Positions 2 to 14,904 are shown, numbered from the stretch's first letter. The stretch: 64,000 bases of DNA from Ignavibacteriales bacterium (GCA_050258815.1 JBLMZM010000361.1:15846-79845); one strand, 5' to 3'. The notes: generated by a model from the letters alone, not told the origin. Made by a program: numbers and translations.

Positions 2-1513
2 TTCCACCCAGATCCTCCCACTGTTTCTTTCCACGAAGTCCTTGCACAATATCAGGCCGAGTCCTGTGCCCTTCTCTTTGTCTGTTCCTTCCTTTATAAC
101 ATTTTCATCAATTTTGAACAGCCTTTTTATCTCTCCTTGTTCAATTCCCATACCCGTATCCGAGACCTCAACTATAACCTCCTCCGGGGTGCTGCTGTAT
201 TGCCTGACCACTACTCTTCCATGCTGGGGGGTAAATTTTATGGCGTTGGAAAGCAGGTTTCTAATGACCGTATTGATCATATTTCGGTCCGCAAACACGT
301 TAAACTCCTCGGAAAATTCGTAATTCAGGTTAATTCTTTTTCTGGCGGCATTAACCTGATAGATGTCAAGGATATCCCTTATCATGACGTTAAGGCAGAA
401 ACTGGCCGGAGAGAACTCCATTCTGCCCGACTGAAGTGAGGACCACTGCAGCAGATTCTCTATAAGCTTGAAGACCCTTTTCAGGGAATTATAAATGCGG
501 TGGGAGAAGTCCCTCACCTCTTCCTTGCTCAGCTCATCAATATTATGGCTCAGATATTCGGTAAAGCCAAGCAGTGCCGAAAAAGGGCTTCGCAGGTCAT
601 GTGCAACAATAGAGAAGAATTTATCCTTGCTGGCATTCAGTTCATGCAGGTTCTTGTTTAATGAGGCCAGTTCCTTTGCATTATTCTCGAGAGCTTCCTT
701 ATTAAGGCGCAGTTCCTCGGCATACCTGCGGATCTGTTCTTCGGCTTTTTTGCGTTCGTCGATGTCCTCAATTATGGATATAAAATATTTAGGCGTTCCG
801 CTCGCATCGCGGACAAGTGAAACCGTGAGGTCCGTCCATATTACCGCGCCATCCCTGCGGATGTAGCGTTTTTCCATGGAGTAGGTTCTTATCTCACCTT
901 CGATAATTTTCTTTATATTCTCCAGATCGGGGGGCAGGTCCTCCGGAAAAGTCATGCTCTGAAAATCCAGGCTGAGCATTTCTTCGGGTGAGTATCCGGT
1001 AATATCGCATATTCTCTGGTTTACCTTGACCCATCTGCCGTCCAGTGCAACGTGTGCAATGCCAACGGCTGCCTGTTCAAACGTAGCTTTTAACTGCGAT
1101 TCCCTCTCAAGCAGGGCCTCTTCGATGCGTTTTCTTTCAATTGCATAGCGCAGCGAGTGTTCCAGCAGGCCGGCATCTATTTTCCCCTTTACCAGATAAT
1201 CCTGTGCTCCTGCCTGAATGGCTTTAACGGCTACCTGTTTATCGTTTAGACCCGTCATGACAACTATAGGCACTCCGGCAGTCTGTTCGTGTACCTTGTA
1301 AAAGGTATCAATGCCGAAGCTGTCGGGGAGCCCGAGATCCAGCAGTACAGCGCTGATGCTGTTCTGCTTCAGGCGTTCCAGTCCTTTGGAAAGCCTGGTG
1401 ACGTGTTCAATTTCAATATTAACTTCTTCAATTTCGCCAATCATATCCTCAATCAGGGCGGCATCACCAGGATTATCCTCAATAATGAGTAATTTAATAT
1501 ATTCTTTGTCCAT
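2..1513 (-). CDS. Hybrid signalling protein: receiver (REC) + PAS + histidine kinase (HisKA/HATPase); truncated by the window edge
   Basis: Not in the ORF track because it has no stop in the window. Read by hand from ATG at 1513, which overlaps the upstream TAA (TAATG): MDKEYIKLLIIEDNPGDA...AVLLDLGLPDS...GAQDYLVK (REC); ATFEQAAVGIAHVALDGRWVKVNQ...MEKRYIRRDG (PAS); SIVAHDLRSP (H box), RNLLSNAIKFT (N box), DTGMGI (G1), GTGLGL (G2). Confidence 0.92.
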   Translation of the reverse strand, partial: MDKEYIKLLIIEDNPGDAALIEDMIGEIEEVNIEIEHVTRLSKGLERLKQNSISAVLLDLGLPDSFGIDTFYKVHEQTAGVPIVVMTGLNDKQVAVKAIQAGAQDYLVKGKIDAGLLEHSLRYAIERKRIEEALLERESQLKATFEQAAVGIAHVALDGRWVKVNQRICDITGYSPEEMLSLDFQSMTFPEDLPPDLENIKKIIEGEIRTYSMEKRYIRRDGAVIWTDLTVSLVRDASGTPKYFISIIEDIDERKKAEEQIRRYAEELRLNKEALENNAKELASLNKNLHELNASKDKFFSIVAHDLRSPFSALLGFTEYLSHNIDELSKEEVRDFSHRIYNSLKRVFKLIENLLQWSSLQSGRMEFSPASFCLNVMIRDILDIYQVNAARKRINLNYEFSEEFNVFADRNMINTVIRNLLSNAIKFTPQHGRVVVRQYSSTPEEVIVEVSDTGMGIEQGEIKRLFKIDENVIKEGTDKEKGTGLGLILCKDFVERNSGRIWVE

Positions 1514-1965
1514 TACTTTCCCATACTAGGGAGCTTTACAATTGAAAACCAAAAATTTTCAATTGAATTGATTACATCGATAAAATGTTCGAAATCCACG
1601 GGTTTTGTTATATAACAATTGGCGTTTAGTTTATAGCTTGTAATTACGTCCTGTTCAGCCTGTGAGGAAGTAAGTATTACGACGGGTATTACCTTCAGCT
1701 TTTCGTCTGCTTTTATCTCGGCCAGCACCTCCTTGCCATTCTTTTTGGGCAGATTCATGTCAAGCAGTATTAAATCCGGGACCGGTGCGTCCTTATATTT
1801 TCCGCTACGGCGCAAAAATTCGAGGGCTTCAATGCCGTTCTTTGTAACGCTCAGGTTGTTATGGATCTTCCCTTCAAAGAGAGCCTCCTTAATGAGAACA
1901 ATATCCCCATTGTTATCTTCTACTAGCAATATTTCCACCGGGGGAACGGCTATTTGATTATTCAT
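1513..1965 (-). CDS. Single-domain response regulator, Rcp1/phytochrome-associated type
   Basis: ILLVEDN, DLILLDMNLPKKNG (phospho-Asp), PVVILTSS, ANCYITKPVDF and the C-terminal NFWFSIVKLP typical of Rcp1-like regulators. Confidence 0.9.
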   Translation of the reverse strand: MNNQIAVPPVEILLVEDNNGDIVLIKEALFEGKIHNNLSVTKNGIEALEFLRRSGKYKDAPVPDLILLDMNLPKKNGKEVLAEIKADEKLKVIPVVILTSSQAEQDVITSYKLNANCYITKPVDFEHFIDVINSIENFWFSIVKLPSMGK

Positions 1966-2597
1966 ATAAAATTTTCCTTAATCCATAGAGCCACTTTAAT
2001 GTTTTAATAATTCAGCACGATGCTGTAACCATTCAGATAATTCCACTGCGTTATTCTTAATTATACAACGATCCGGAACTACCCGGTAAATCTGTATGTT
2101 ATCCAGATGAATTTGATGGCATGAGTAAAATAATATATGCCGTCCGATTCATATTATAACTATAATATACAATAATTGGGCTGCCCTAATAAAGAGTAAA
2201 AACTTATCCTAAAAGGAGGGAAGAGGGTATGGGTCACGCTGTTATCAGATCAAACTTGAGGGCAAAAATTTTGCCACAGCAAATAAAAAGAGATACAATT
2301 CTCCGTAATTGCCAATCTGTACCTGTTAATCAGCAGAATACCATAATAGCTAAACAGTAAAATATCCGCCATTTCATCGTTTTTCCTGAAAATCCATTCT
2401 GACCGGCTCCATTTGCACCGCTAATAGGGCAAGCATAAATGCGTGCGGGGCGTATTCCGGGGGAAGTGGATAAAAATATGGACTAAAAGGCCTATAAACT
2501 AATTCCCAATTAATCCGAATATTCCAAAAACGCAGAGATAGCAATAAGCAGAAGATAAGTAGACAGTTTGAAGTAAAAATGAATTGGAGTTGAGTAA

Positions 2598-4661
2598 ATG
2601 CGAGCACGTATTCAAAATCTTGATTTGTATCTGGATGAATTAAAAGGGGGACAGCATAGATTTGAAAATGTTTTTGAATCGATTGCCAGGATGCTGTTTG
2701 ATGATCCTAAACAGATACAGCCGATTGTGGTAAACGGAAAGAATACCTACGATTTTTTAAAGTTCAGGACCGGAAAGAAGCACATTATTGGGATGTTCGA
2801 TGTATTGAACAAATTTATAGCCTTTATTAAAGATGCAGCTGAGGAAGGTGAAAGCAAGGAAATGGCATTCGTTCTGGTTGGTGAGCCTGGCAACGGAAAA
2901 ACCTATTTTGTGGATTATTTATCGGCCATGTACCGCGATTTTGTTAATGTCCCTGAAAATCGCAAATATACCTTCAGGTTCAGGATACCGAAAGAGATGG
3001 AAGGCTACGGAAACATCAGGGAAATTGAATCACAGACATATGAGGACCCCGTCATACTGGCAATGAACCTGTACTGCAACAAGGAAGAAAGCATGGAAAT
3101 GCTTTTAAGCAAGGGTTTCAGTACCAGCGAGGTTGAGAATTATTATAAGAATTTCAGACCACTTGGTGCCGACAGTGAGTTCATACTGAACGACCTGAAG
3201 TCTTACTTTGACGAAGACATTGAACGCGTAAAAGAGTGCATAGAAATTGTTCAGGTGCCAATCAGCGAGACCATGGGCACCATTACGGGTAAATATCCGG
3301 CCAAGGACAAAATCACCAGTTCGGGTGTTGATCTGGTGGGTGAGGAGAGCATACAAAGGCTGCTGCATATAACCAATACAAACAATCCTTACCGTTTTGA
3401 CCTCAGAAGGGGTGCACTTGCGCGTGTTGGCGGCGGCGGAATTCACTTTGCAGACGAAATCTTCAAAAACAAGACCGATCTGATGAAAATCTACCTGGGT
3501 GTGGTACAGAACCGGGTGATTGAAATTGACGCCTTTAAGTGGCCCATCGATACATTTATCATTGCCACAAGCAATAACTCGGATGTTCAGAACTACAGGA
3601 CAAACGGCGAGGAAAAACCTATAATTGACCGTTGCAAGTTCTGCTATGTAGCCCATAACACGGATTATAAACTGCAGCAAAACCTGACCCGCTATGCACT
3701 GGGCAGCAGCGATAAGACCACCTTCTCGGGTGAAAAACTGCACATAGATCCGAACCTGATATATGTCATGTCGACAACTGTTACGCTCAGCAGACTGCCA
3801 AGAGCGGATGACAAGCTTACTCCTGTCGAAATGATGAAGCTTGCAGCAGGTGAAGTCGCGGGCGAAAAGAGCGTGAAAGCCCTGGCTGAAATTGTTGAGG
3901 ACCTGGAGCATGAACCCGATATTACCAAACGTTTTGGGCAGAAGGGCCTGGGACAGCGCGATCTGGCCAGAATGATAAATACGCAGAGAGGATATTCCGA
4001 GACCAACGAAGGCAAATGCATGTTCGGTGAGGACGCCTTTAAGGCGACCGAAGAGGTGATACTTGATTATATACAGGACACCAACGAACGTTCAAAATAC
4101 TTTGAGGACCTGAAAATTGCAAAGAGCCTCTACCGCAAGCGCATCAGAACGGAAATGTTCAACGCCTTTATGGATGAGCCTACGGCAATCAAAAAAGACG
4201 TGCTGATGTACGTCAATATGATAGTTGGAATGGGACGCTCGGATCTGGGAACGGATAAAATAATCACTTACAGGGATCCTCAGACCAGCAAGATGCAGCC
4301 AATAAAAATTGACGAGCGCTTTGTAAATGCAGTTGAAAATGAGCTGGAAATGAAGACCAGGGAGCAGAAAGAATCCTTCCGCGGACAGATCAGAAAGATC
4401 TATGCCCAGAGACTGCAGACGGATAAGAATTATGATTTCATGGACAATGTCGATCTTGTCAAGGCTGTAACCGATACCAGGCTTAATTCCGATATTGCCT
4501 CGGCAGGAGGTTTGGTCGGAGCTCTTGCCAACAGGACCAATGAGGACAATGAGCGCCTGTATAACAGGATTGTTTCAACCATGATCAATAAGCTGGGATA
4601 CTGCTATACTTGTGCCCAGAAAACCATAGAATTCTTCTGTACACAGGATCACCAGACCTGA
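2598..4661 (+). CDS. prkA: PrkA/YeaG-family AAA+ protein (often annotated serine protein kinase), paralogue 1
   Basis: 687 aa; Walker A GEPGNGKT, Walker B IHFADE, sensor-1 ATSN, IDR arginine finger, C-terminal LGYC..CA motif; first gene of the yeaH/spoVR operon. Confidence 0.88.
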   Translation: MRARIQNLDLYLDELKGGQHRFENVFESIARMLFDDPKQIQPIVVNGKNTYDFLKFRTGKKHIIGMFDVLNKFIAFIKDAAEEGESKEMAFVLVGEPGNGKTYFVDYLSAMYRDFVNVPENRKYTFRFRIPKEMEGYGNIREIESQTYEDPVILAMNLYCNKEESMEMLLSKGFSTSEVENYYKNFRPLGADSEFILNDLKSYFDEDIERVKECIEIVQVPISETMGTITGKYPAKDKITSSGVDLVGEESIQRLLHITNTNNPYRFDLRRGALARVGGGGIHFADEIFKNKTDLMKIYLGVVQNRVIEIDAFKWPIDTFIIATSNNSDVQNYRTNGEEKPIIDRCKFCYVAHNTDYKLQQNLTRYALGSSDKTTFSGEKLHIDPNLIYVMSTTVTLSRLPRADDKLTPVEMMKLAAGEVAGEKSVKALAEIVEDLEHEPDITKRFGQKGLGQRDLARMINTQRGYSETNEGKCMFGEDAFKATEEVILDYIQDTNERSKYFEDLKIAKSLYRKRIRTEMFNAFMDEPTAIKKDVLMYVNMIVGMGRSDLGTDKIITYRDPQTSKMQPIKIDERFVNAVENELEMKTREQKESFRGQIRKIYAQRLQTDKNYDFMDNVDLVKAVTDTRLNSDIASAGGLVGALANRTNEDNERLYNRIVSTMINKLGYCYTCAQKTIEFFCTQDHQT

Positions 4662-4762
4662 TGAGGCAGCCTGTATAATATTGTTTGACCGGATATCTGT
4701 GTGTATGTGAAACGATGAAAACGAAATAGAAAAGTCTTACAGAAGAGCAGGGAATTAAAGCT

Positions 4763-6139
4763 ATGAAAAGTAATAAACATCAGGCGTTGATTGAAAAGCT
4801 GAAAAAGCAGGGCCTTTCCGGGGGGCAGCTAAAGCTTATCAATGTGGAAATGGCGCATAAGGGAGATCATGGCATCCAGCCGGAAGCCCCGTATGAAGGA
4901 ATTAGTAATGCACAGAAGCAGGGGCTGTACGGACATAATGATGTTTCTTTTCTCTTGCAGATGAGCGTGAATGCCGGGCAGACCGCCCGGCTTTATGCAC
5001 TTGATAAGCTCCTTGAGCGTGACAAGCAGCGGGAGAAGGACGGTTTTCCAAGAAAGGTAAAGTTAGGAAAACTCGTTAAACCAATTAAAGGCGGAAACGA
5101 CAGGACTATCATCATTCCAACCATTTCCGAAGAAAAGCTCTATCACTGGAAAGGTGAGGCTTCAGGCGGTGAAGGACAGGGTACGGGCGGTACAGGAGAA
5201 GGAGAGGAAGGTGATGTTATTGGTGAGGAACCCTTAAGACCCGAGGATGGAAGCGGCCAGGGAGCCGGACAAGGACAAGGCGGGCAGCATGGAATGGGTG
5301 CTGATGCATATGATATCGGGCGAATTCTGACTGAACAATTCGAACTCCCGAATATCAGGGAAAAAGGAAAGAAAACCTCTCTTACAAAATTTACCTACGA
5401 CCTGACGGACAAGAACCGCGGGCAGGGACAGATACTGGATAAGAAGGCAACGCTGAAAAGGGTAATTAAAACGAATCTCGCCCTGGGAAATATTTCGGAA
5501 TCAGAACCGGTGGATACATCCAGCCTTTTGATTACACCTAACGACAGGGTATACCGGATACTTTCAAAGGAAAGGGACTATGAATCACAGGCCATTGTGT
5601 TTTTTGTGCGTGACTATTCCGGATCGATGACCGGAAAGCCCACCGAAGTCGTCGTTACACAGCACATTTATATTAATAGCTGGCTGGTGTACCAGTATAA
5701 AAGACAGGTTAAGAGCAGATTCATTGTTCACGATACGGAAGCTGAAGAGGTCCCCGATTTTTATACATACTACAACAAGCAGGTAGCAGGCGGCACCGAC
5801 GTGGCCTCAGCATTCAGCCTCGTCAACAAAATTGTCGAAGAGGAAAACCTCGCCAAAGATTATAACATCTACATATTCCATGGTACAGATGGCGACGACT
5901 GGGATTCAAGGGGCGAAAAAGCCCTGGAAGAATTGAAGAAAATGCTGACCTATTCGAGCAGGATCGGTATTACAATTGCCGGTGGCGGCTCGGACTATAA
6001 CAATACATTTGTGGAACAATACCTGAGAAATTCCAAACTGCTGGAGGCATACCCTGACAAACTGCGCCTGGACAGCATGAAGGCTTCTGAGGCAAATGAA
6101 GAACGCATTATAAACAGCATAAAGAAATTGATACAGTGA
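4763..6139 (+). CDS. YeaH/YhbH (DUF444) family vWA-domain protein
   Basis: Gly/Glu-rich linker (GGTGEGEEGDVIG...GQGAGQGQGG), ELPNIREKG, LDKKATLKR, and MIDAS elements DYSGS / GGT / TDGD; lies between prkA and spoVR. Confidence 0.88.
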   Translation: MKSNKHQALIEKLKKQGLSGGQLKLINVEMAHKGDHGIQPEAPYEGISNAQKQGLYGHNDVSFLLQMSVNAGQTARLYALDKLLERDKQREKDGFPRKVKLGKLVKPIKGGNDRTIIIPTISEEKLYHWKGEASGGEGQGTGGTGEGEEGDVIGEEPLRPEDGSGQGAGQGQGGQHGMGADAYDIGRILTEQFELPNIREKGKKTSLTKFTYDLTDKNRGQGQILDKKATLKRVIKTNLALGNISESEPVDTSSLLITPNDRVYRILSKERDYESQAIVFFVRDYSGSMTGKPTEVVVTQHIYINSWLVYQYKRQVKSRFIVHDTEAEEVPDFYTYYNKQVAGGTDVASAFSLVNKIVEEENLAKDYNIYIFHGTDGDDWDSRGEKALEELKKMLTYSSRIGITIAGGGSDYNNTFVEQYLRNSKLLEAYPDKLRLDSMKASEANEERIINSIKKLIQ

Positions 6140-6140
6140 T

Positions 6141-7784
6141 ATGAAGTTAATCGATCAGCATACAAAGAAAATAATGGAAGGCTGCAAGGAACGGGCTGCG
6201 GCTTCGGGACTTAAGTTTGACAAAGAGACCCTGGAATACATGGTTACAAATACCGACATGATTGAACTGTCTCCCAAGAATATGATTCCTACCTTATATG
6301 ATTATTGGGTGCAGGATATTCAGGTCCTGCGGGGTAAGGGCGAATATGAATATTATCCTAATAATCCCTATGAAACAGTAATAAATACGCGCCCGGTTAT
6401 ATCGTTTTATAACAATAATAATCCCGACTGGCTGAACGTCATGATCTTTTATCATGTGCTGGCTCACATCGATTTCTTTCAGAACAATAAGTTCTTTGAG
6501 CAGACGTGGAACTATGATTTTAAGGAAAAAGCCCTGACCGATAAAAGAATTATTGCCAGGCTGAGGGCTGCAAAGAAACGCCAGGTCGATTATATAATAG
6601 AGTTCGCCAGGGGAATTGATAACCTGGTGGGCTTTCATGAATCCTATACAAACAGGGAGGACGAGAGTCAGTTCCAGTTTCCCGAAAAGGTGGAATTCTA
6701 TTTCAGCCGGTTCCTGCAGGGAATTAAAAAGGCCGGATTGCACGAGTTCCTTGAAGAGGTGGAGCGGTATAACAAGGATTCACAACTGGAGGAAAAAGAG
6801 CACGAAGACGTTTTCCTTGCGCGCGTAAGGCAGAAATATCCTGAGTTTGACAATATATTTAACAAGGAAAAAGAACAAAATCCTTCCAGGGACAGCCAGG
6901 ATCTGATGCAGTTTCTGCTGCATGAGAGCAGCATACTCAACCATACGGACAATAAGTGGATGAAATCCATTATTGAGATAGTAAGGGAAACTTCGCTTTA
7001 TTTTGCCCCCATGATCAGAACCAAAACCATGAATGAGGGCTGGGCGAGCTACTGGCATGAAAAATTGTTCCTGGATGATGACAGGATAAAAGGTCACGAA
7101 ATTGCATTCGCCAAGATAAATGCGGGAGTAACTGCTCTGAGTAAGGTGGGATTGAATCCTTATGCCATAGGCTGGAGACTCTTTATGTATATTGAAGAGA
7201 TGGCAGACAAGGGAAGGATATCCTATGACTTCCGCAAGATCAGTAACCGCGAGGAAAGGAACCGCTTTGACAACAGGTCAATGAGCGGGCGCGATTTTAT
7301 ATTCCATGTGCGCGAGAACTACTGCGACTTTACTTTCTTCAATACATTCGTCGATCAGGATTTTGTTGATAAGCACAAGCTTATGGTCGTGGATGAAAGG
7401 ATAAACCCTCAACGCAATACCAGGGAGTATTATATAAAGAGCCGCAAGGCGAAAAACTATAAGCAGATGCTGTTTGAAAGTCTGTACCACCCGCCCTATG
7501 TAACCTTCCGCAGGGAATCAGACAATACTCTGTACCTGAACCACGAGTTTGAGGGACAGGAGCTCTACAGGGAGTATATACCCAATACTTTAATGGGAAT
7601 AGAATACCTATGGGGAGGACCCGTAAAGCTTGAAACAACGGAGCTGGACATGGAGGCAATGAGAAAATCTTCAGGCAGGGATAGTAGTGAAATGAAGCCT
7701 GTTTTTCAGAGGGTCGTTTATACGATGAAGGACCGGAAGATCAGCAAAGAAAGGGTCCAGGCTGATGCCTCAGCATATATTTAA
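6141..7784 (+). CDS. spoVR: SpoVR/YcgB family protein
   Basis: PYETVINT, FYHVLAHIDFFQNN, TKTMNEGWASYWH, LNPYAIG, LYLNHEFEG and YLWGGPVKLET match SpoVR hallmarks; starts 1 bp after the yeaH stop. Confidence 0.92.
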   Translation: MKLIDQHTKKIMEGCKERAAASGLKFDKETLEYMVTNTDMIELSPKNMIPTLYDYWVQDIQVLRGKGEYEYYPNNPYETVINTRPVISFYNNNNPDWLNVMIFYHVLAHIDFFQNNKFFEQTWNYDFKEKALTDKRIIARLRAAKKRQVDYIIEFARGIDNLVGFHESYTNREDESQFQFPEKVEFYFSRFLQGIKKAGLHEFLEEVERYNKDSQLEEKEHEDVFLARVRQKYPEFDNIFNKEKEQNPSRDSQDLMQFLLHESSILNHTDNKWMKSIIEIVRETSLYFAPMIRTKTMNEGWASYWHEKLFLDDDRIKGHEIAFAKINAGVTALSKVGLNPYAIGWRLFMYIEEMADKGRISYDFRKISNREERNRFDNRSMSGRDFIFHVRENYCDFTFFNTFVDQDFVDKHKLMVVDERINPQRNTREYYIKSRKAKNYKQMLFESLYHPPYVTFRRESDNTLYLNHEFEGQELYREYIPNTLMGIEYLWGGPVKLETTELDMEAMRKSSGRDSSEMKPVFQRVVYTMKDRKISKERVQADASAYI

Positions 7785-7844
7785 GGATTTATAAATACTG
7801 ACTATATTTTTTGAAAAGTTTAGATTGAAAAGGTTTGGGATAAG

Positions 7845-10040
7845 ATGGCACCTAAGGCAAGTAAAGAGGTTGCAAATGTAATGGCACTTCTGGATAAAAA
7901 ACTTAAACATGAGGACAAGGGGACGGTTTTAACGTTTTCTCAGTTCCTTGAAAAAGTGGCTTCACAGCCGGAAAAGATTTTCAGAAATATCTTCCAGATG
8001 TTCCATGATATGATATTCCACTATATTCAGGAAGAGGAAGATTTTACCAATGATCCTGAAAGCATAAACTATAAGACTATTCAGTGTGACAAACTGTTCG
8101 TCGAGCAGACAGATACTCCGTTTTTTTCGGATCTGCCCCTGGCCAACAGACTCGTGCGCCTGGCTGATTCCTTCAATGAAGGCACACAGCAGAACAAAAT
8201 CTATATTTTTATAGGTCCTCCGGGCAGCGGAAAGAGTACCTTCCTCAATAATCTGCTGCAGAGATTCGAGGAATACAGCCATACAACAGAAGGACAAAAC
8301 TATGAAGTGGTCTGGAGGCTGGATAGTTCCAGGCTTAGCAATGGTATAACGACGGGGATTCTGGAAATCCCTTGTCCCAGTCACGACCATCCCATACTCA
8401 TGATCCCGAAGGCTTACCGCCAGGAGGTGTTGGAGGAGCTGATCCCTGAGGAGGAAAGGTCCGCCATTTTCAACAAAAAAGAATATGAATGGGTCCTCAA
8501 GGAAAAACCCTGTACAATCTGCAGCTCAATATATGATACACTTGCAAAGAAGCTGGGCTCCCCCCAGGACATATTTAATATGTTATACGTGCGGCGCTAT
8601 TATTTTAACCGCAGACTGGGCGAGGGAATCAGCGTATTTAACCCGGGTGACCCACCTTCAAAACAGTTCGTGCTTACCAATGAGGTAATACAGAAAGAAC
8701 TGAGCGGCATCTTTAAGGACAGCAATATCATTCAGTACATATTTTCGCGCTATGCAAAGACCAATAACGGCGTGTTTGCTCTCATGGATGTCAAAGGGCA
8801 CAATGAAACAAGGCTGGTTGACCTGCATGGCATCATCAGTGAGGGTGTTCATAAAATTGAGGACCATGAGGAGTACGTAAAATCGCTGTTTATTGCCGTA
8901 ATGAATCCTGAGGACAAGGAAAAGATCAGGGACATTAATTCATTTACAGACCGTATTACGGAAATCAATGTCAACTATATACTGAACTATACCGAAGAGG
9001 TAAAAACATATTACCAGTCGATGGGTAAAAAAGTGAGCAGGCATTTTCTGCCCGGCGTGCTGGAAAACTTTGCTAAAATCATCATCAGTTCCAGGCTAAA
9101 CCCCGAGTCAGAAGCAGTCAAGGAGTGGATACAGCATCCCAGGAAATATGAGAAATACTGCGATGACGACCTGCTGCTGCTGAAGATGAGCCTGTATTCC
9201 AATTTAATACCCGGCTGGCTTTCAGATGATGACCGCAAGACCTTCGATAAGCAGATGAGAAGAAAGATCTTCAGCGAATCGGAAAAAGAAGGCCGCGAAG
9301 GCTTCTCGGGCCGGGAATCCATCAATATTTTTAACGACTTTTACAACGTATACAGGAAAAAGGTAAAAAACGGCAAAGGTGAAAAACTGATCACCATGGA
9401 TGACGTAAAGAATTTCTTCCTGAAACAAGTAGACAGAAGGGAAATCATCCCAAGGGGTTTTATCGATTCAATTATAAGGCTCTATGATTACAGTGTCATG
9501 GAAGAAATCAAGGAATCGCTCTTTAATCATAATGAGAAAAGAGTCAGTCAGGATATACAGAATTATCTGTTTGCGTCGAATTACGATATAGGTGAGAAAC
9601 AATTCTGCCCTTATACCAACGAAACAGTTGAAATTGGAGAGGCTTTCTTTGAATTAATAGAGCAGAACCTGTTCAAGAGAAAAATAAGCATGGAATCGCG
9701 CAGGAACTTCCGTTCCGAGATTGCCTCCAGGTTTACGATTACGCTGCAGGAGATGGTAGGAGAAGAAAGAGATATAACAGATACTCACATCTATAAGGAG
9801 CTCTATTCCATTTATATGAACAATCTGCGTGAGAATATTTTTGAGCCGTTTTTGAAATATACGGCCTACGAAAATGCCATTAAGGATTATGGGACTGATA
9901 AATTTGAGAAGTTTGATTCCAGAGTAAAGGAAGACGTGGTGTTTCTGGTAAAGAATCTTACCAGCAAATTTAACTATACCAGTGAAGGTGCCAGACAGGT
10001 ATGCTTGTATATAATAAATAAAAATGCATCGCTGAACTAA
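7845..10040 (+). CDS. PrkA-family AAA+ protein, paralogue 2 (degenerate Walker B)
   Basis: 731 aa; LTFSQFLEKV...FRNIFQMFHDMI N-terminus typical of PrkA, Walker A GPPGSGKST, CPSHDHP...CTIC, NNGVFALMDV at the Walker B position, SFTDR, EGREGFSGRES. Confidence 0.85.
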   Translation: MAPKASKEVANVMALLDKKLKHEDKGTVLTFSQFLEKVASQPEKIFRNIFQMFHDMIFHYIQEEEDFTNDPESINYKTIQCDKLFVEQTDTPFFSDLPLANRLVRLADSFNEGTQQNKIYIFIGPPGSGKSTFLNNLLQRFEEYSHTTEGQNYEVVWRLDSSRLSNGITTGILEIPCPSHDHPILMIPKAYRQEVLEELIPEEERSAIFNKKEYEWVLKEKPCTICSSIYDTLAKKLGSPQDIFNMLYVRRYYFNRRLGEGISVFNPGDPPSKQFVLTNEVIQKELSGIFKDSNIIQYIFSRYAKTNNGVFALMDVKGHNETRLVDLHGIISEGVHKIEDHEEYVKSLFIAVMNPEDKEKIRDINSFTDRITEINVNYILNYTEEVKTYYQSMGKKVSRHFLPGVLENFAKIIISSRLNPESEAVKEWIQHPRKYEKYCDDDLLLLKMSLYSNLIPGWLSDDDRKTFDKQMRRKIFSESEKEGREGFSGRESINIFNDFYNVYRKKVKNGKGEKLITMDDVKNFFLKQVDRREIIPRGFIDSIIRLYDYSVMEEIKESLFNHNEKRVSQDIQNYLFASNYDIGEKQFCPYTNETVEIGEAFFELIEQNLFKRKISMESRRNFRSEIASRFTITLQEMVGEERDITDTHIYKELYSIYMNNLRENIFEPFLKYTAYENAIKDYGTDKFEKFDSRVKEDVVFLVKNLTSKFNYTSEGARQVCLYIINKNASLN

Positions 10041-10085
10041 AGCTGCAAAGATATTTTTATTTTTACTAACAACTCAACTCCAAAT

Positions 10086-10139
10086 CCCGGCAGTTCCGGC
10101 TCACCCATTGTGGGGGCCGGACTGAACCGGATGCTTTTT
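10086..10139 (+). terminator. Probable intrinsic terminator of the prkA operon
   Basis: GC-rich imperfect hairpin (ccggcagttccggctc...gggccggactgaaccgg) followed by a T run, between convergent genes. Confidence 0.5.
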
Positions 10140-10591
10140 CAGCAAAAATTTAGCACCTTGCTTTCGAGGGAATTCCTGAATTTTTCCAGTTTTAACTGCA
10201 GGTCACTGAGCACAGAGGCATTGACCCCGGATTTTTTCAGTTGGCGGCTGTTCTCTTTTGCAGTCCTTATTATCTCGGTGGCATTGGTTAGAAGCTCATT
10301 ATGTTTTAGTCTTACAAAGTAACTTACGCTATTTCTGCACCTGCCTTTGGGATCTGCGTCCTCAATTCCGTAAAGGTATAAAACTGAAGCTACACGCACA
10401 AGGGCAAAGATCAAATCGTCTTTTGCATTCGAAGTCTGAATCGATTTCTCCAGAACGCCGGTTAATGCTTTATGTTCTTTGTTCTTAACTTCTTCCATCA
10501 ACCTCTGATATCTGGAAGCACCCAAAGCATTTTTATCAAACAGCGGTAACGGCTCATACATATTTGCTTTTGTAGTGTGTTGGTTTATCAT
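10139..10591 (-). CDS. Hypothetical alpha-helical protein
   Basis: 150-aa ORF with AGAGG upstream; segments AKDDLIFALVRVASVLYLYG...RLKHNELLTNATEII...SGVNASVLSDLQ resemble an uncharacterised helical family I recall from FCB-group genomes. Confidence 0.6.
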   Translation of the reverse strand: MINQHTTKANMYEPLPLFDKNALGASRYQRLMEEVKNKEHKALTGVLEKSIQTSNAKDDLIFALVRVASVLYLYGIEDADPKGRCRNSVSYFVRLKHNELLTNATEIIRTAKENSRQLKKSGVNASVLSDLQLKLEKFRNSLESKVLNFC

Positions 10592-12798: not shown

Positions 12799-14904
12799 TT
12801 ATTTGATCAGCATCATTTTTCTTACCTTCCTGAATTCCTGCGTGCCCTGCTGGGTAGGCTGGGCTATAATGGAATAAAAATAGAGTCCCGAGGGCAGGTC
12901 TGAAGCCTGAAAACTCAGGTGATAGGTGCCCGGGGCCTGGATTTCATTTATGATCTCAGCAACCACCTGGCCAATTGAATTATAGACCGTTAGCTTTACG
13001 TTGCTCTCAAGGGGCAGGGCGTAGCTGAGGGTTGTCGAAGGATTAAAAGGATTCGGGTGATTCTGGAAAAGTGAATACTCCGTGGGTACGGCATTATCCC
13101 TTTTTACAGAGGTAATGGTAGTTACTTCCGCCTGATTGCTGTATTGTGAGGGGGTATTCATATTAAAGCCCCTGATCCTGTAGGTATATAACACTCCTCC
13201 CAGGACGGTAGAATCAATAAACCCTGTAGAATTTGCTTCGGCAGTATCAATTGCGCTGAAATCCCCCTCCAGTTTCCGTTCAATAATAAATCCGGTTTCG
13301 CCTTCTGATTTATCTGTCCATGTAAGTTTTACTTTTTTAATTCCATATGGGATGGCAGCCAGGTTTTCCGGGGGTGGAAGCAGCGTAACGAAGCTGCAGG
13401 AGTTGGAAAACGCGCTTGTTCCGGCTGCATTGCGGGCGTTTATGCGCCAGTAATATCTGGTGCCGTAATAGAGGTTAGTCACTAGTTTCGAAGTAGCCGT
13501 GATCGTTGAGTCATCCAGAAGTATATTTCCGAAAATAGCGTCTGAGGCCAGCTGCAGGCGATAAGTCATGGCACCCTGTACGCTGTTCCAGACCAGTGTT
13601 ACATTTACAGGCTGGAAGGCTGAACCATCTGCAGGAGAGGCCAGTACCGGAATGGCAGGGATAGCCTTGATAGTCGTAAAATTCCAGGTGTCGGAATTAG
13701 GGCCGTAGCTGCCCGCATTTCTGCCTCTTAAGCGCCAATAGTATACAGTATTATTATTAAGGTGAGGAATTTGTCTGGATGTATCTGAAATCGCATATTC
13801 CTCGTATATAAGGCTGGAAAAGCTGGGAAAAGTTGATACCTGCAGGTGATAGCTGTCGGCAAAAGTCATGCGCTTCCATTTAAGCGTAACGTTAAGTGGC
13901 TGGTTAACAGATGAATTCAGGGGAGAAGAGAGAGAAGGCTGTGAAAGAATAACCGTGAAGACACGGATTTCTGACCAGGGACTAACTCCTCCGGCGTTCC
14001 AGGCGTAGACCCTCCAGAAATACTTCCTGCCGTTCTGAAGTGTCTTGAACTGCATGGAATTGGTTTTTATTGTATCGCTGTTATAGATAAGATAGCTGAA
14101 AGTTGTATCGGCAGAGACCTGCAGTCTGTATGCATAGGCTCCATAGAGGGCATTCCAGCTTAGAGTAACATCTATGGGCTGATTTACGGCTCCCATAGCA
14201 GGAGCAATGAGTGCAGGGGCACCGGGGGTGGCCACTATTGTGGTAAACCTCCAGATCTCCGACCACGCACTGTTCCCTCCCGGGTTTGAGGCCCTTACCC
14301 TCCAGAAATATTTTCTGCTATTTTCGAGATTCTTAACCTGCAGATATGTATCCTTAATATCGCTGGCATCATAAGTAATGTAATTAAACAGGGTGTCTGT
14401 AGATAACTGCAGCCTGTAAGAGACAGCACCCGGCGTGGATTGCCAGTTCAGGTTTAAAGTGACCGGCTGGTTCGTTGCCCCGCTGGAAGGGCTGCTGAGC
14501 CTGGGAATGCCGGGGGCTGTTTGTATGGTGCTGAAATTCCATGTGTCGGACCAGGGACTAGCTCCCGAAGAATCCCATGCACTCACCCTCCAGTAGTAGG
14601 TGGTGTTATTTTTCAGATTATTAATGGTGGCCGAAGTACTAAGAATATTAGTATCGATTACCACATTATTGAACTGGCTGTCGTAAGCCAAAACAACCTC
14701 ATAGATCGCTGCGCCAAAGGAATCACTCCAGCTAAGATTGACTGATACGGGCAGGTTGACCGAATTGTTTGCGGGTGAAAGCGGCTGTGGGGAAACAGGC
14801 ACAGTAAAGGCAGGAGCACCTTTTGCAGAGGCACATAGAGCCGAATCCATAAAAATAAGCCAGAGCAGCACACTAATGCCCGATAAAGTAATAATCCGTT
14901 TCAT
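12799..14904 (-). CDS. Secreted multi-Fn3 repeat protein with T9SS type A C-terminal sorting domain
   Basis: Signal peptide; five ~95-aa repeats (P.L.SP...V.L.W...Y.LQ.S...L.N...Y(Y/F)WR...WS..W.FTT) plus a sixth Fn3; C-terminal LFQNHPNPFNPSTT...LPSGLYFY...KMMLIK. Confidence 0.88.
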   Translation of the reverse strand: MKRIITLSGISVLLWLIFMDSALCASAKGAPAFTVPVSPQPLSPANNSVNLPVSVNLSWSDSFGAAIYEVVLAYDSQFNNVVIDTNILSTSATINNLKNNTTYYWRVSAWDSSGASPWSDTWNFSTIQTAPGIPRLSSPSSGATNQPVTLNLNWQSTPGAVSYRLQLSTDTLFNYITYDASDIKDTYLQVKNLENSRKYFWRVRASNPGGNSAWSEIWRFTTIVATPGAPALIAPAMGAVNQPIDVTLSWNALYGAYAYRLQVSADTTFSYLIYNSDTIKTNSMQFKTLQNGRKYFWRVYAWNAGGVSPWSEIRVFTVILSQPSLSSPLNSSVNQPLNVTLKWKRMTFADSYHLQVSTFPSFSSLIYEEYAISDTSRQIPHLNNNTVYYWRLRGRNAGSYGPNSDTWNFTTIKAIPAIPVLASPADGSAFQPVNVTLVWNSVQGAMTYRLQLASDAIFGNILLDDSTITATSKLVTNLYYGTRYYWRINARNAAGTSAFSNSCSFVTLLPPPENLAAIPYGIKKVKLTWTDKSEGETGFIIERKLEGDFSAIDTAEANSTGFIDSTVLGGVLYTYRIRGFNMNTPSQYSNQAEVTTITSVKRDNAVPTEYSLFQNHPNPFNPSTTLSYALPLESNVKLTVYNSIGQVVAEIINEIQAPGTYHLSFQASDLPSGLYFYSIIAQPTQQGTQEFRKVRKMMLIK

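Follow-up and report, generated by a model that had tools for sequence, protein, structure and literature searches.

A 64,000-nucleotide stretch of the Ignavibacteriales bacterium assembly GCA_050258815.1 (JBLMZM010000361.1:15846-79845, referred to below as the window) contains, at positions 2598-10040, a cassette of four genes in which two PrkA-family AAA+ ATPases, here called PrkA1 and PrkA2, bracket a YeaH protein with a von Willebrand factor A (vWA) domain and a SpoVR-family protein. The locus is a real, typical and ordinary copy of a widespread four-gene variant of the PrkA/YeaH/SpoVR module, and gene-neighbourhood surveys and phylogeny show that the four genes are inherited and are diversifying jointly across Ignavibacteria, Bacteroidota, Fibrobacterota and Thermodesulfobacteriota, with PrkA2 almost always inherited together with PrkA1. 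We hold it to be highly probable that the four genes form a co-inherited functional unit. The PrkA/YeaH/SpoVR trio is among the most widespread bacterial stress or sporulation modules for which no biochemical function has been agreed, with kinase activity, protease activity and neither of the two all having been claimed. The features of the locus discussed below, with positions counted from the first nucleotide of the window, are:

2463-2525, + strand: candidate promoter/operator block (putative function), conserved upstream of prkA1 in relatives
2598-4661, + strand: prkA1, 687 aa, PrkA-family AAA+ ATPase with PF08298 and PF06798
4763-6139, + strand: yeaH, 458 aa, DUF444 protein (PF04285) having a vWA domain with intact metal ion-dependent adhesion site (MIDAS) and a Gly/Glu-rich linker
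6141-7784, + strand: spoVR, 547 aa, SpoVR family (PF04293)
7845-10040, + strand: prkA2, 731 aa, second PrkA-family AAA+ ATPase with PF08298 and PF06798
10087-10139, + strand: terminator-like hairpin followed by AUGCUUUUU, predicted by RNA folding, between prkA2 and a convergent gene at 10139-10591

All four open reading frames (ORFs) lie on the same strand, separated by gaps of 101, 1 and 60 nt as measured from the ORF coordinates, and all four products score above the Pfam gathering cut-offs, which are 25 bits for the PrkA domains and 27 bits for PF04285 and PF04293. PrkA1 matches PF08298 with 46.2 bits and PF06798 with 102.9 bits, PrkA2 matches the same two domains with 45.2 and 125.1 bits, YeaH matches PF04285 with 108.1 bits and SpoVR matches PF04293 with 189.2 bits. 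The four-gene arrangement noted in an initial annotation of this DNA is upheld, as is its description of the PrkAs as strongly diverged paralogues, since BLASTP can align the two over only 97 residues around the P-loop, with 23% identity (E 2e-7). They are the only PF06798 matches in the 5.36-Mb assembly. YeaH falls within an NCBIfam equivalog of its own, NF003712 (639.1 bits against a cut-off of 421), a model that stayed below its cut-off in all 14 control genomes. Neither PrkA qualifies for the E. coli-type YeaG equivalog NF011999 (cut-off 576 bits; PrkA1 scores 27.9 bits and PrkA2 gives no match), and SpoVR, with 74.9 bits, falls short of the 679 bits required by NF008737, the equivalog for E. 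coli YcgB. The gene order in the window, together with the position of each PrkA inside a clade of its own with 100% support (see below), identifies the locus as a four-gene two-PrkA cassette.

To describe the spread of this arrangement we surveyed loci seeded with either paralogue. The PrkA2-seeded survey, which drew on contigs from one genome per species, yielded 48 true loci from Ignavibacteria, Bacteroidales, Flavobacteriales, Kapabacteria, Fibrobacterota, many Desulfobacterales and their relatives, and Geomonas. The order PrkA1-YeaH-SpoVR-PrkA2 is present on a single strand in 34 of these; a further 11 are cut by the start of a contig and display a partial order consistent with it, and three (L009, L039 and L044) are rearranged. 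The PrkA1-seeded survey yielded 80 metagenome loci, 51 of which have at least 3.6 kb of DNA downstream and could be evaluated. Forty-six of these 51 contain the full order, one of them with prkA2 in two ORFs, and the partial orders at the 29 loci that were too short are all consistent. A search with PrkA2 among 1.84 billion representatives recovered 132 proteins at E<=1e-30 and 586 at E<=0.001.

Twelve of 41 genomes from the window's order encode PrkA. In ten of them the two copies share a contig at a distance of 5.2-5.6 kb, another genome has the pair on two contigs and the last has a single copy near a contig start. Within the sample of the window's own phylum only six of 401 genomes pass the PrkA cut-off, five with the pair and one with an ordinary three-gene operon. 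PrkA is present in 47 of 301 genomes from the phylum that holds Geomonas (also the phylum of genome G417), and here the same 19 genomes have both a PrkA1-class and a PrkA2-class match, 18 of them on one contig, where matches were assigned to a class from their score and ORF length, with a check on retrieved examples. The other PrkA-positive genomes of this sample comprise 24 with canonical copies only, three with a further two-PrkA type and one with a fragment. The initial annotation had named frequent occurrence of PrkA2 without PrkA1 as an outcome that would refute its proposed machine. This was not what we found, as the two co-occur in 19 of 19 genomes in the last sample, as 11 pairs among the 12 positives of the order, and in most evaluable loci, and the surveys and the tree together agree with its proposal that the PrkA/YeaH/SpoVR module exists here as a variant with two ATPases, and show this variant to be conserved. 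The patchy spread of the cassette, and the nesting of Fibrobacterota copies among Desulfobacterota copies, suggest that it moves as a unit.

Several departures from the common layout were also recorded. Split or rearranged loci include L058/L059, L067, L039, L009, L099, L101, L102, L119 and L156; at L009 there is no yeaH within 2.9 kb before spoVR, and three loci having prkA1 without downstream partners carry yeaH on the opposite strand, 4.7 kb upstream. On metagenome contig L081 (8935-11283) prkA2 is present as two consecutive ORFs, attributable to a frameshift, a stop codon or an assembly error. Genome G681 (L056:4687-14839) harbours a five-gene form, prkA2-prkA1-yeaH-spoVR-prkA2, whose two PrkA2 copies do not pair with one another on the tree. 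A two-PrkA cassette of a third type, far more diverged, was identified at L054:4965-12642 and L055:6315-13749 and occurs in three of 301 genomes of one sample; its order is PrkA (~760 aa), YeaH, SpoVR and a second PrkA of 875 or 1367 aa.

The relationships of the paralogues were examined in a 50-row tree built with a quick IQ-TREE run, in which the midpoint root is for drawing only and long branches meet, so that the order of the deep splits is uncertain. Support in the Shimodaira-Hasegawa-like approximate likelihood ratio test (SH-aLRT) is 100% both for the PrkA1 clade (18 rows) and for the PrkA2 clade (19 rows); the two clades stand on stems of 4.09 and 3.84 changes per column respectively and divide internally into the identical three subgroups. 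All single-copy PrkAs (from E. coli, Thermomicrobium and others) lie on the other side of the tree, and the first PrkA of the third cassette groups with them. Across 31 cassettes the pairwise distances of the four proteins are correlated (r 0.78-0.92). Mean p-distance in these cassettes rises from 0.278 for PrkA1 through 0.409 for SpoVR and 0.420 for YeaH to 0.474 for PrkA2, and PrkA1 is the slowest-evolving and PrkA2 the fastest-evolving gene of the cassette. On the best explanation, the cassette forms an old and distinct lineage of the PrkA/YeaH/SpoVR module of stress and dormancy. The four most distant PrkA2-like proteins do not have a halophile-like acidic composition.

Both PrkAs retain a Walker A motif of the form G-x4-G-K-[ST] (GEPGNGKT in PrkA1 and GPPGSGKS in PrkA2), which is invariant in both alignments and conserved in 33 PrkA1 and 46 PrkA2 locus sequences, and both retain the P-loop lysine, the sensor-1 asparagine, the 'DR' arginine and the sensor-2 arginine. 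They differ at Walker B, where PrkA1 displays the classic IHF(A/S)DE (IHFADE in the window) and PrkA2 displays (F/Y)A(L/I)MD (FALMD in the window), with V or I and no acidic residue in the next position; 60 sequences all share M314 and D315 of this motif. The corresponding form in single-copy PrkAs is G-h-h-E-h-h-E. The third cassette repeats the asymmetry, its first PrkA having E-x-x-E at Walker B and its second a lone aspartate. These motifs hint, if weakly, that PrkA2 may be a poor hydrolyser of ATP. PrkA2 also contains four residues, C177, H180, C223 and C226, that are invariant in 60 sequences and absent from E. coli YeaG and PrkA1; this Cys/His cluster is a putative zinc site. Six cysteines of PrkA1 (346, 349, 474, 669, 672 and 681) are likewise invariant or nearly so and absent from PrkA2 and E. 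coli YeaG. They include a C-x2-C downstream of the 'DR' arginine and a C-terminal C-x2-C-x8-C, and could form a second metal or redox site. Four full-length distant PrkA2-like proteins (P0360, P0370, P0378 and P0390; 25-27% identity) have no recognisable Walker A and show H-(L/Y)-(T/S)-D at Walker B.

An AlphaFold2 model of PrkA2 (mean predicted local distance difference test score, pLDDT, 82.9) matches AAA+ folds over residues 46-538 in VIA-align comparisons (Z 8-10.5), including CLPB, LonC, ClpA, Lon, NorQ, CbbQ and BchI. Its C-terminal residues 444-726 are almost all helix with two short strands only, and thus unlike a protein kinase. Foldseek returned no match to this model at E<=0.001 in a PDB set without 9xip, and ESM Atlas look-ups returned the PrkA family and nothing further.

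The remaining two proteins of the cassette share their key residues with canonical relatives. The MIDAS motifs of YeaH (DYSGS, GGT and TDGDD) align with DVSGS, GGT and SDGDN of the E. coli protein and reach at least 90% conservation each among 37 YeaH proteins of the cassette type, in agreement with the earlier view that the site is intact. SpoVR had been described as a metallopeptidase, and here the outcome was divided. The AlphaFold2 model of SpoVR (pLDDT 83.1) is zincin-like over residues 1 to ~415, and the top 50 rows of a wide VIA-align search are mostly zincin or zincin-like over this region (Z 11.6-6.4; M1 aminopeptidases, leukotriene A4 hydrolase, DUF885, M3, M32 and thermolysin), although the tool notes that chance matches of helical models can attain values such as a Z of about 11. 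Neither Foldseek against the PDB (E<=0.001) nor a 43-sequence SpoVR profile against PDB sequences (0 matches at E<=10) gave any match. In an alignment of 43 sequences, H105, V106, H109, N298, E299, G300 and W301 are invariant. The histidine pair lies, in the model, on a helix after a small sheet, as in zincins, some 190 residues before the NEGW motif, and we take the longer N-E-G-W-A-S-Y to resemble the motif of M1 enzymes in which the third zinc ligand lies. The site itself, H105-V-L-A-H109, reads HVxxH and not HExxH, with valine in place of the catalytic glutamate in 43 of 43 sequences, cassette and canonical types alike. The metallopeptidase label in the initial annotation is therefore correct in part at most: the model matches zincin folds, but a role for SpoVR as a conventional peptidase is doubtful. 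Because of the fold matches, the invariant histidine pair and NEGW, and the valine at the position of the catalytic glutamate, we consider SpoVR to be probably a zincin-derived, metal-binding protein that is not a standard peptidase.

These features can be combined in a working model. A promoter within the conserved block ahead of prkA1 would drive transcription, which would end at the hairpin after prkA2, and the four proteins would work together as a single AAA+/vWA-type remodelling unit driven by ATP, comparable to MoxR-vWA pairs. PrkA1, with its classic Walker B 'DE' and the most constrained sequence, would be the main hydrolysing motor. PrkA2, with its lone aspartate, its Cys/His cluster and the least constraint, would be a specialised partner, either in a mixed ring or as a second ring. 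YeaH would couple the ATPases to their target through its MIDAS site, and SpoVR would bind metal and a peptide segment without standard zincin cleavage. Taken as a whole, the statement that a conserved, co-inherited cassette acts as one remodelling unit is the one towards which we lean, by a small degree. On whether both PrkAs are needed in one pathway we consider the case evenly poised, and a mixed PrkA1/PrkA2 ring appears doubtful to us. The most specific version of the model is an obligate mixed motor in which PrkA1 hydrolyses ATP, a zinc-bearing PrkA2 is slow or senses nucleotide, YeaH docks via its MIDAS and SpoVR, as a 'dead-base' zincin, clamps the peptide. We regard this version as rather unlikely; if true, it would provide the first mechanistic handle on the whole PrkA/YeaH/SpoVR module.

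A complex prediction for PrkA1 residues 1-410 with PrkA2 residues 1-445, using alignment inputs, scored 0.00 and is uninformative for or against binding. A number of observations weigh against such a model. The proposed division of labour between the two ATPases is open to question, as single-copy PrkAs too are without a classic hhhhDE motif and have E-x-x-E instead, E-D or E-E is found at the Walker B position in three of ten distant PrkA2-like proteins examined, and PrkA2 keeps the invariant sensor-1 asparagine and arginine. Co-transcription of prkA2 with the other three genes is not obligatory, because the cassette is split in several settings: in genome G259 PrkA1 and yeaH-spoVR-prkA2 lie on different contigs, a Kapabacteria genome (L044) has prkA2 9.4 kb from the other three genes, prkA2 is inverted at L039, and five of the 51 evaluable metagenome loci have PrkA1 without downstream partners. 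Finally, the biochemistry of canonical PrkA is itself disputed. ATP hydrolysis and a weak ATP-dependent protease activity are reported for B. subtilis PrkA (PMC9512850), and B. anthracis PrkA is reported to have neither protease nor kinase activity after stringent purification (PMC13001217).

It is possible, if rather doubtful, that the two PrkAs instead form separate homo-oligomeric ATPases which act sequentially or antagonistically in one pathway, PrkA2 serving for example as a regulator, or as an alternative motor for particular conditions with YeaH and SpoVR in common. Given the 23% identity over 97 residues and the very long stems of the two clades, the interfaces of a mixed ring would need to have been retained for a very long time. 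The full set of nucleotide-site residues in PrkA2, the loci at which prkA2 lies apart from the other three genes, and the L056 genome, in which two prkA2 copies flank one prkA1-yeaH-spoVR, are also compatible with separate rings. The near-perfect co-occurrence of the paralogues and their correlated divergence (r 0.91) fit a tight coupling of the two, yet they fit mixed and separate rings alike, and it is therefore not possible to distinguish between the two arrangements on these grounds.

The paralogues might alternatively be subfunctionalised duplicates without joint action, the second being a spare PrkA near the operon and each able to run the YeaH/SpoVR pathway alone. Most carriers of the module do manage with one PrkA (in the 301-genome sample, single or canonical carriers numbered 24 and cassette carriers 19), and three-gene operons are present at L057, L060-L063, L065, L066 and L068. 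However, among the whole genomes examined there was none with only one of the two paralogues, both are remote on the tree from all single-copy PrkAs, there are consistent differences between their catalytic motifs, and the third, unrelated two-PrkA cassette (L054, L055) has the same layout and a motif asymmetry of the same kind; we consider duplicates without joint action unlikely. More improbable still is a signalling pair in which both PrkAs are Ser/Thr kinases and the operon encodes a phosphorylation cascade. The source records do name both proteins 'serine protein kinase PrkA', and autophosphorylation of YeaG and phosphorylation of casein are attributed to older work in 10.1101/072470. Against this, neither PrkA contains a protein-kinase-type Pfam domain at E<=0.001, the C-terminal part of the PrkA2 model is almost entirely helical, and two recent studies report that they found no kinase activity for Bacillus PrkA (PMC13001217, PMC9512850). 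A remodelling unit built from two unlike PrkAs, YeaH and SpoVR stays the reading that we prefer, at the strength given above.

Some features of the locus bear on its expression. The upstream block (~2463-2525) consists of a direct repeat GTGGA-N8-ATGGAC, then CTATAAAC and then TCCGAATAT, and ends ~70 nt before the start of prkA1. In a 650-nt alignment of the window with seven relatives it is the sole conserved stretch in the same-genus loci L069-L071 and is partly conserved in L072 and L073, and it is a possible promoter or regulator site. A search of 29 loci (the window and 28 others) for a sigma-54 -24/-12 element ahead of prkA1 was negative, a scan for sigma-70-type promoters listed 10 sites compared to 19.1 in shuffled sequences, i.e. 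fewer than expected by chance, and no Rfam family was detected within the whole window. At the other end, folding of 10041-10145 predicts a G+C-rich hairpin at 10087-10130 followed by AUGCUUUUU (-31.9 kcal/mol, z -2.6; three of 200 shuffles were as stable). The single terminator at the end of the operon noted in the initial annotation was thus recovered, as a hairpin with a U-run, by RNA folding, although a simple terminator scan left the interval from prkA2 to the convergent gene empty (10 sites in total, not above the 7.8 in shuffles, sd 2.7).

Of the sampled words, 46% are present in one soil metatranscriptome run, whose library may contain DNA according to a warning from the tool. Contigs from this run lie on all four genes (12 of 13 at 99% identity or more) and bridge the prkA1-yeaH and yeaH-spoVR junctions. 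The spoVR-prkA2 gap (7785-7844) is uncrossed among the eight of 13 contig pieces listed, with several bins uncovered, and this is not evidence for separate transcription. The first contig of the library begins at 2460, near the start of the upstream block. A 43-codon ORF at 2229-2360 (+), which lies behind a strong AAGGAGG, was considered and rejected as a gene, being not conserved in relatives and having next to no cover in the RNA library.

Divergent from prkA1, at 2-1965 (-), lie a hybrid histidine kinase (REC-PAS-HisKA-HATPase, running off the edge of the window) and a 150-aa single-domain response regulator; the pair is kept at the same place in two same-genus genomes. On the far side of the cassette a 701-aa protein at 12799-14904 (-) combines fibronectin type III repeats with a type IX secretion C-terminal sorting domain. 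This domain, and the source names of the closest homologues (Ignavibacteria, Bacteroidota), fit the earlier guess that the organism is a non-sporulating diderm.

The value of the cassette for the study of the wider family lies in its two co-inherited and consistently different PrkA paralogues, which are natural separation-of-function variants for asking which nucleotide site and which partner contact matter. Two points extend across the family: SpoVR retains zincin-like metal ligands and never the catalytic glutamate, and the Cys/His cluster is present both in PrkA2 and in a protein of the 9xip type. Among solved structures the latter (PDB 9xip/9xiq/9xir, 'Serine protein kinase', 692 residues) is the sole relative detected by sequence, and it is closer to PrkA2 (89.5 bits, E 1.7e-24) than to PrkA1 (38.8 bits, E 3.8e-9). 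In the printed alignment it has the C-P-x-H and C-x-x-C positions of PrkA2, while its Walker B, IVEFIE, is of the single-copy PrkA type and unlike that of PrkA2. A literature search found no paper on the bacterial bracketed cassette, its mechanism, the Walker B asymmetry, SpoVR as a zincin relative or 9xip, and the names prkA1 and prkA2 gave nothing bacterial. The bacterial bracketed two-PrkA cassette is a widespread, conserved and mechanistically unstudied form of a known module.

Among systems with a likeness to parts of the cassette, the MoxR-type AAA+/vWA pairs (NorQ-NorD, CbbQ-CbbO) and the Mg-chelatase pair BchI-BchD similarly place an AAA+ gene beside a vWA gene with a MIDAS. The PrkA2 model matches NorQ (Z 8.9), CbbQ2 (Z 8.5) and BchI (Z 8.7) at a level of generic AAA+ similarity, and PrkA differs from these proteins in its long extra helical C-terminal domain, PF06798. 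By analogy, the cassette may nevertheless share the working logic of MoxR-vWA and chelatase pairs. Lon-like AAA+ proteins (LonC of Meiothermus, LonB and LonA) provide the best Foldseek rows for the PrkA2 model (4fwg, E 1.3e-3, TM score 0.21) and stand high in its VIA-align list (4fw9, Z 9.8; 3m6a, Z 9.4), and a Lon likeness of PrkA has been argued by Zhang et al. 2022 (PMC9512850). The matches are, however, weak and confined to the AAA+ part, and by Pfam PrkA has no Lon protease domain. For SpoVR the corresponding systems are the gluzincins (M1, leukotriene A4 hydrolase, thermolysin) and DUF885, matched by the model at Z 11.6 to 8 and sharing a histidine pair with a later N-E-G-W; SpoVR differs from them in HVxxH, in the ~190 residues between the histidine pair and NEGW, and in giving no sequence match to solved chains.

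The closest comparison is with the canonical PrkA/YeaG-YeaH/YhbH-SpoVR/YcgB module (E. coli yeaGH and ycgB, B. subtilis prkA-yhbH and spoVR, and R. etli), which comprises the same three families in the order prkA-yeaH-spoVR and has the YeaH MIDAS and the SpoVR HVxxH and NEGW in common with the cassette. As reported in 10.1101/072470, yeaG, yeaH and ycgB display cofitness above 0.7 in six bacteria, and for Rhizobium etli a module of the prkA/yeaH/spoVR type is described as a three-gene operon (PMC3188799). The cassette differs in the second PrkA after spoVR, in the remoteness of both its PrkAs from the single-copy PrkAs on the tree, in failing the YeaG equivalog, in the assignment of its YeaH to NF003712, and in its Walker B forms. 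A cluster with two PrkA genes is already in print for haloarchaea, where a 2011 study comparing haloarchaeal genomes describes two adjacent PrkA-related genes that are always accompanied by a DUF444 gene and a SpoVR gene (PMC3102087). The suggestion in the initial annotation that similar operons might already have been annotated is therefore correct, both in respect of this cluster and in that source records name both genes PrkA. In Haloferax volcanii NF003712 is below its cut-off. Compared by description only, the haloarchaeal cluster and the bacterial cassette have two PrkAs, a DUF444 protein and a SpoVR protein in common and differ in layout, the PrkA genes being adjacent in the former and bracketing yeaH and spoVR in the latter.

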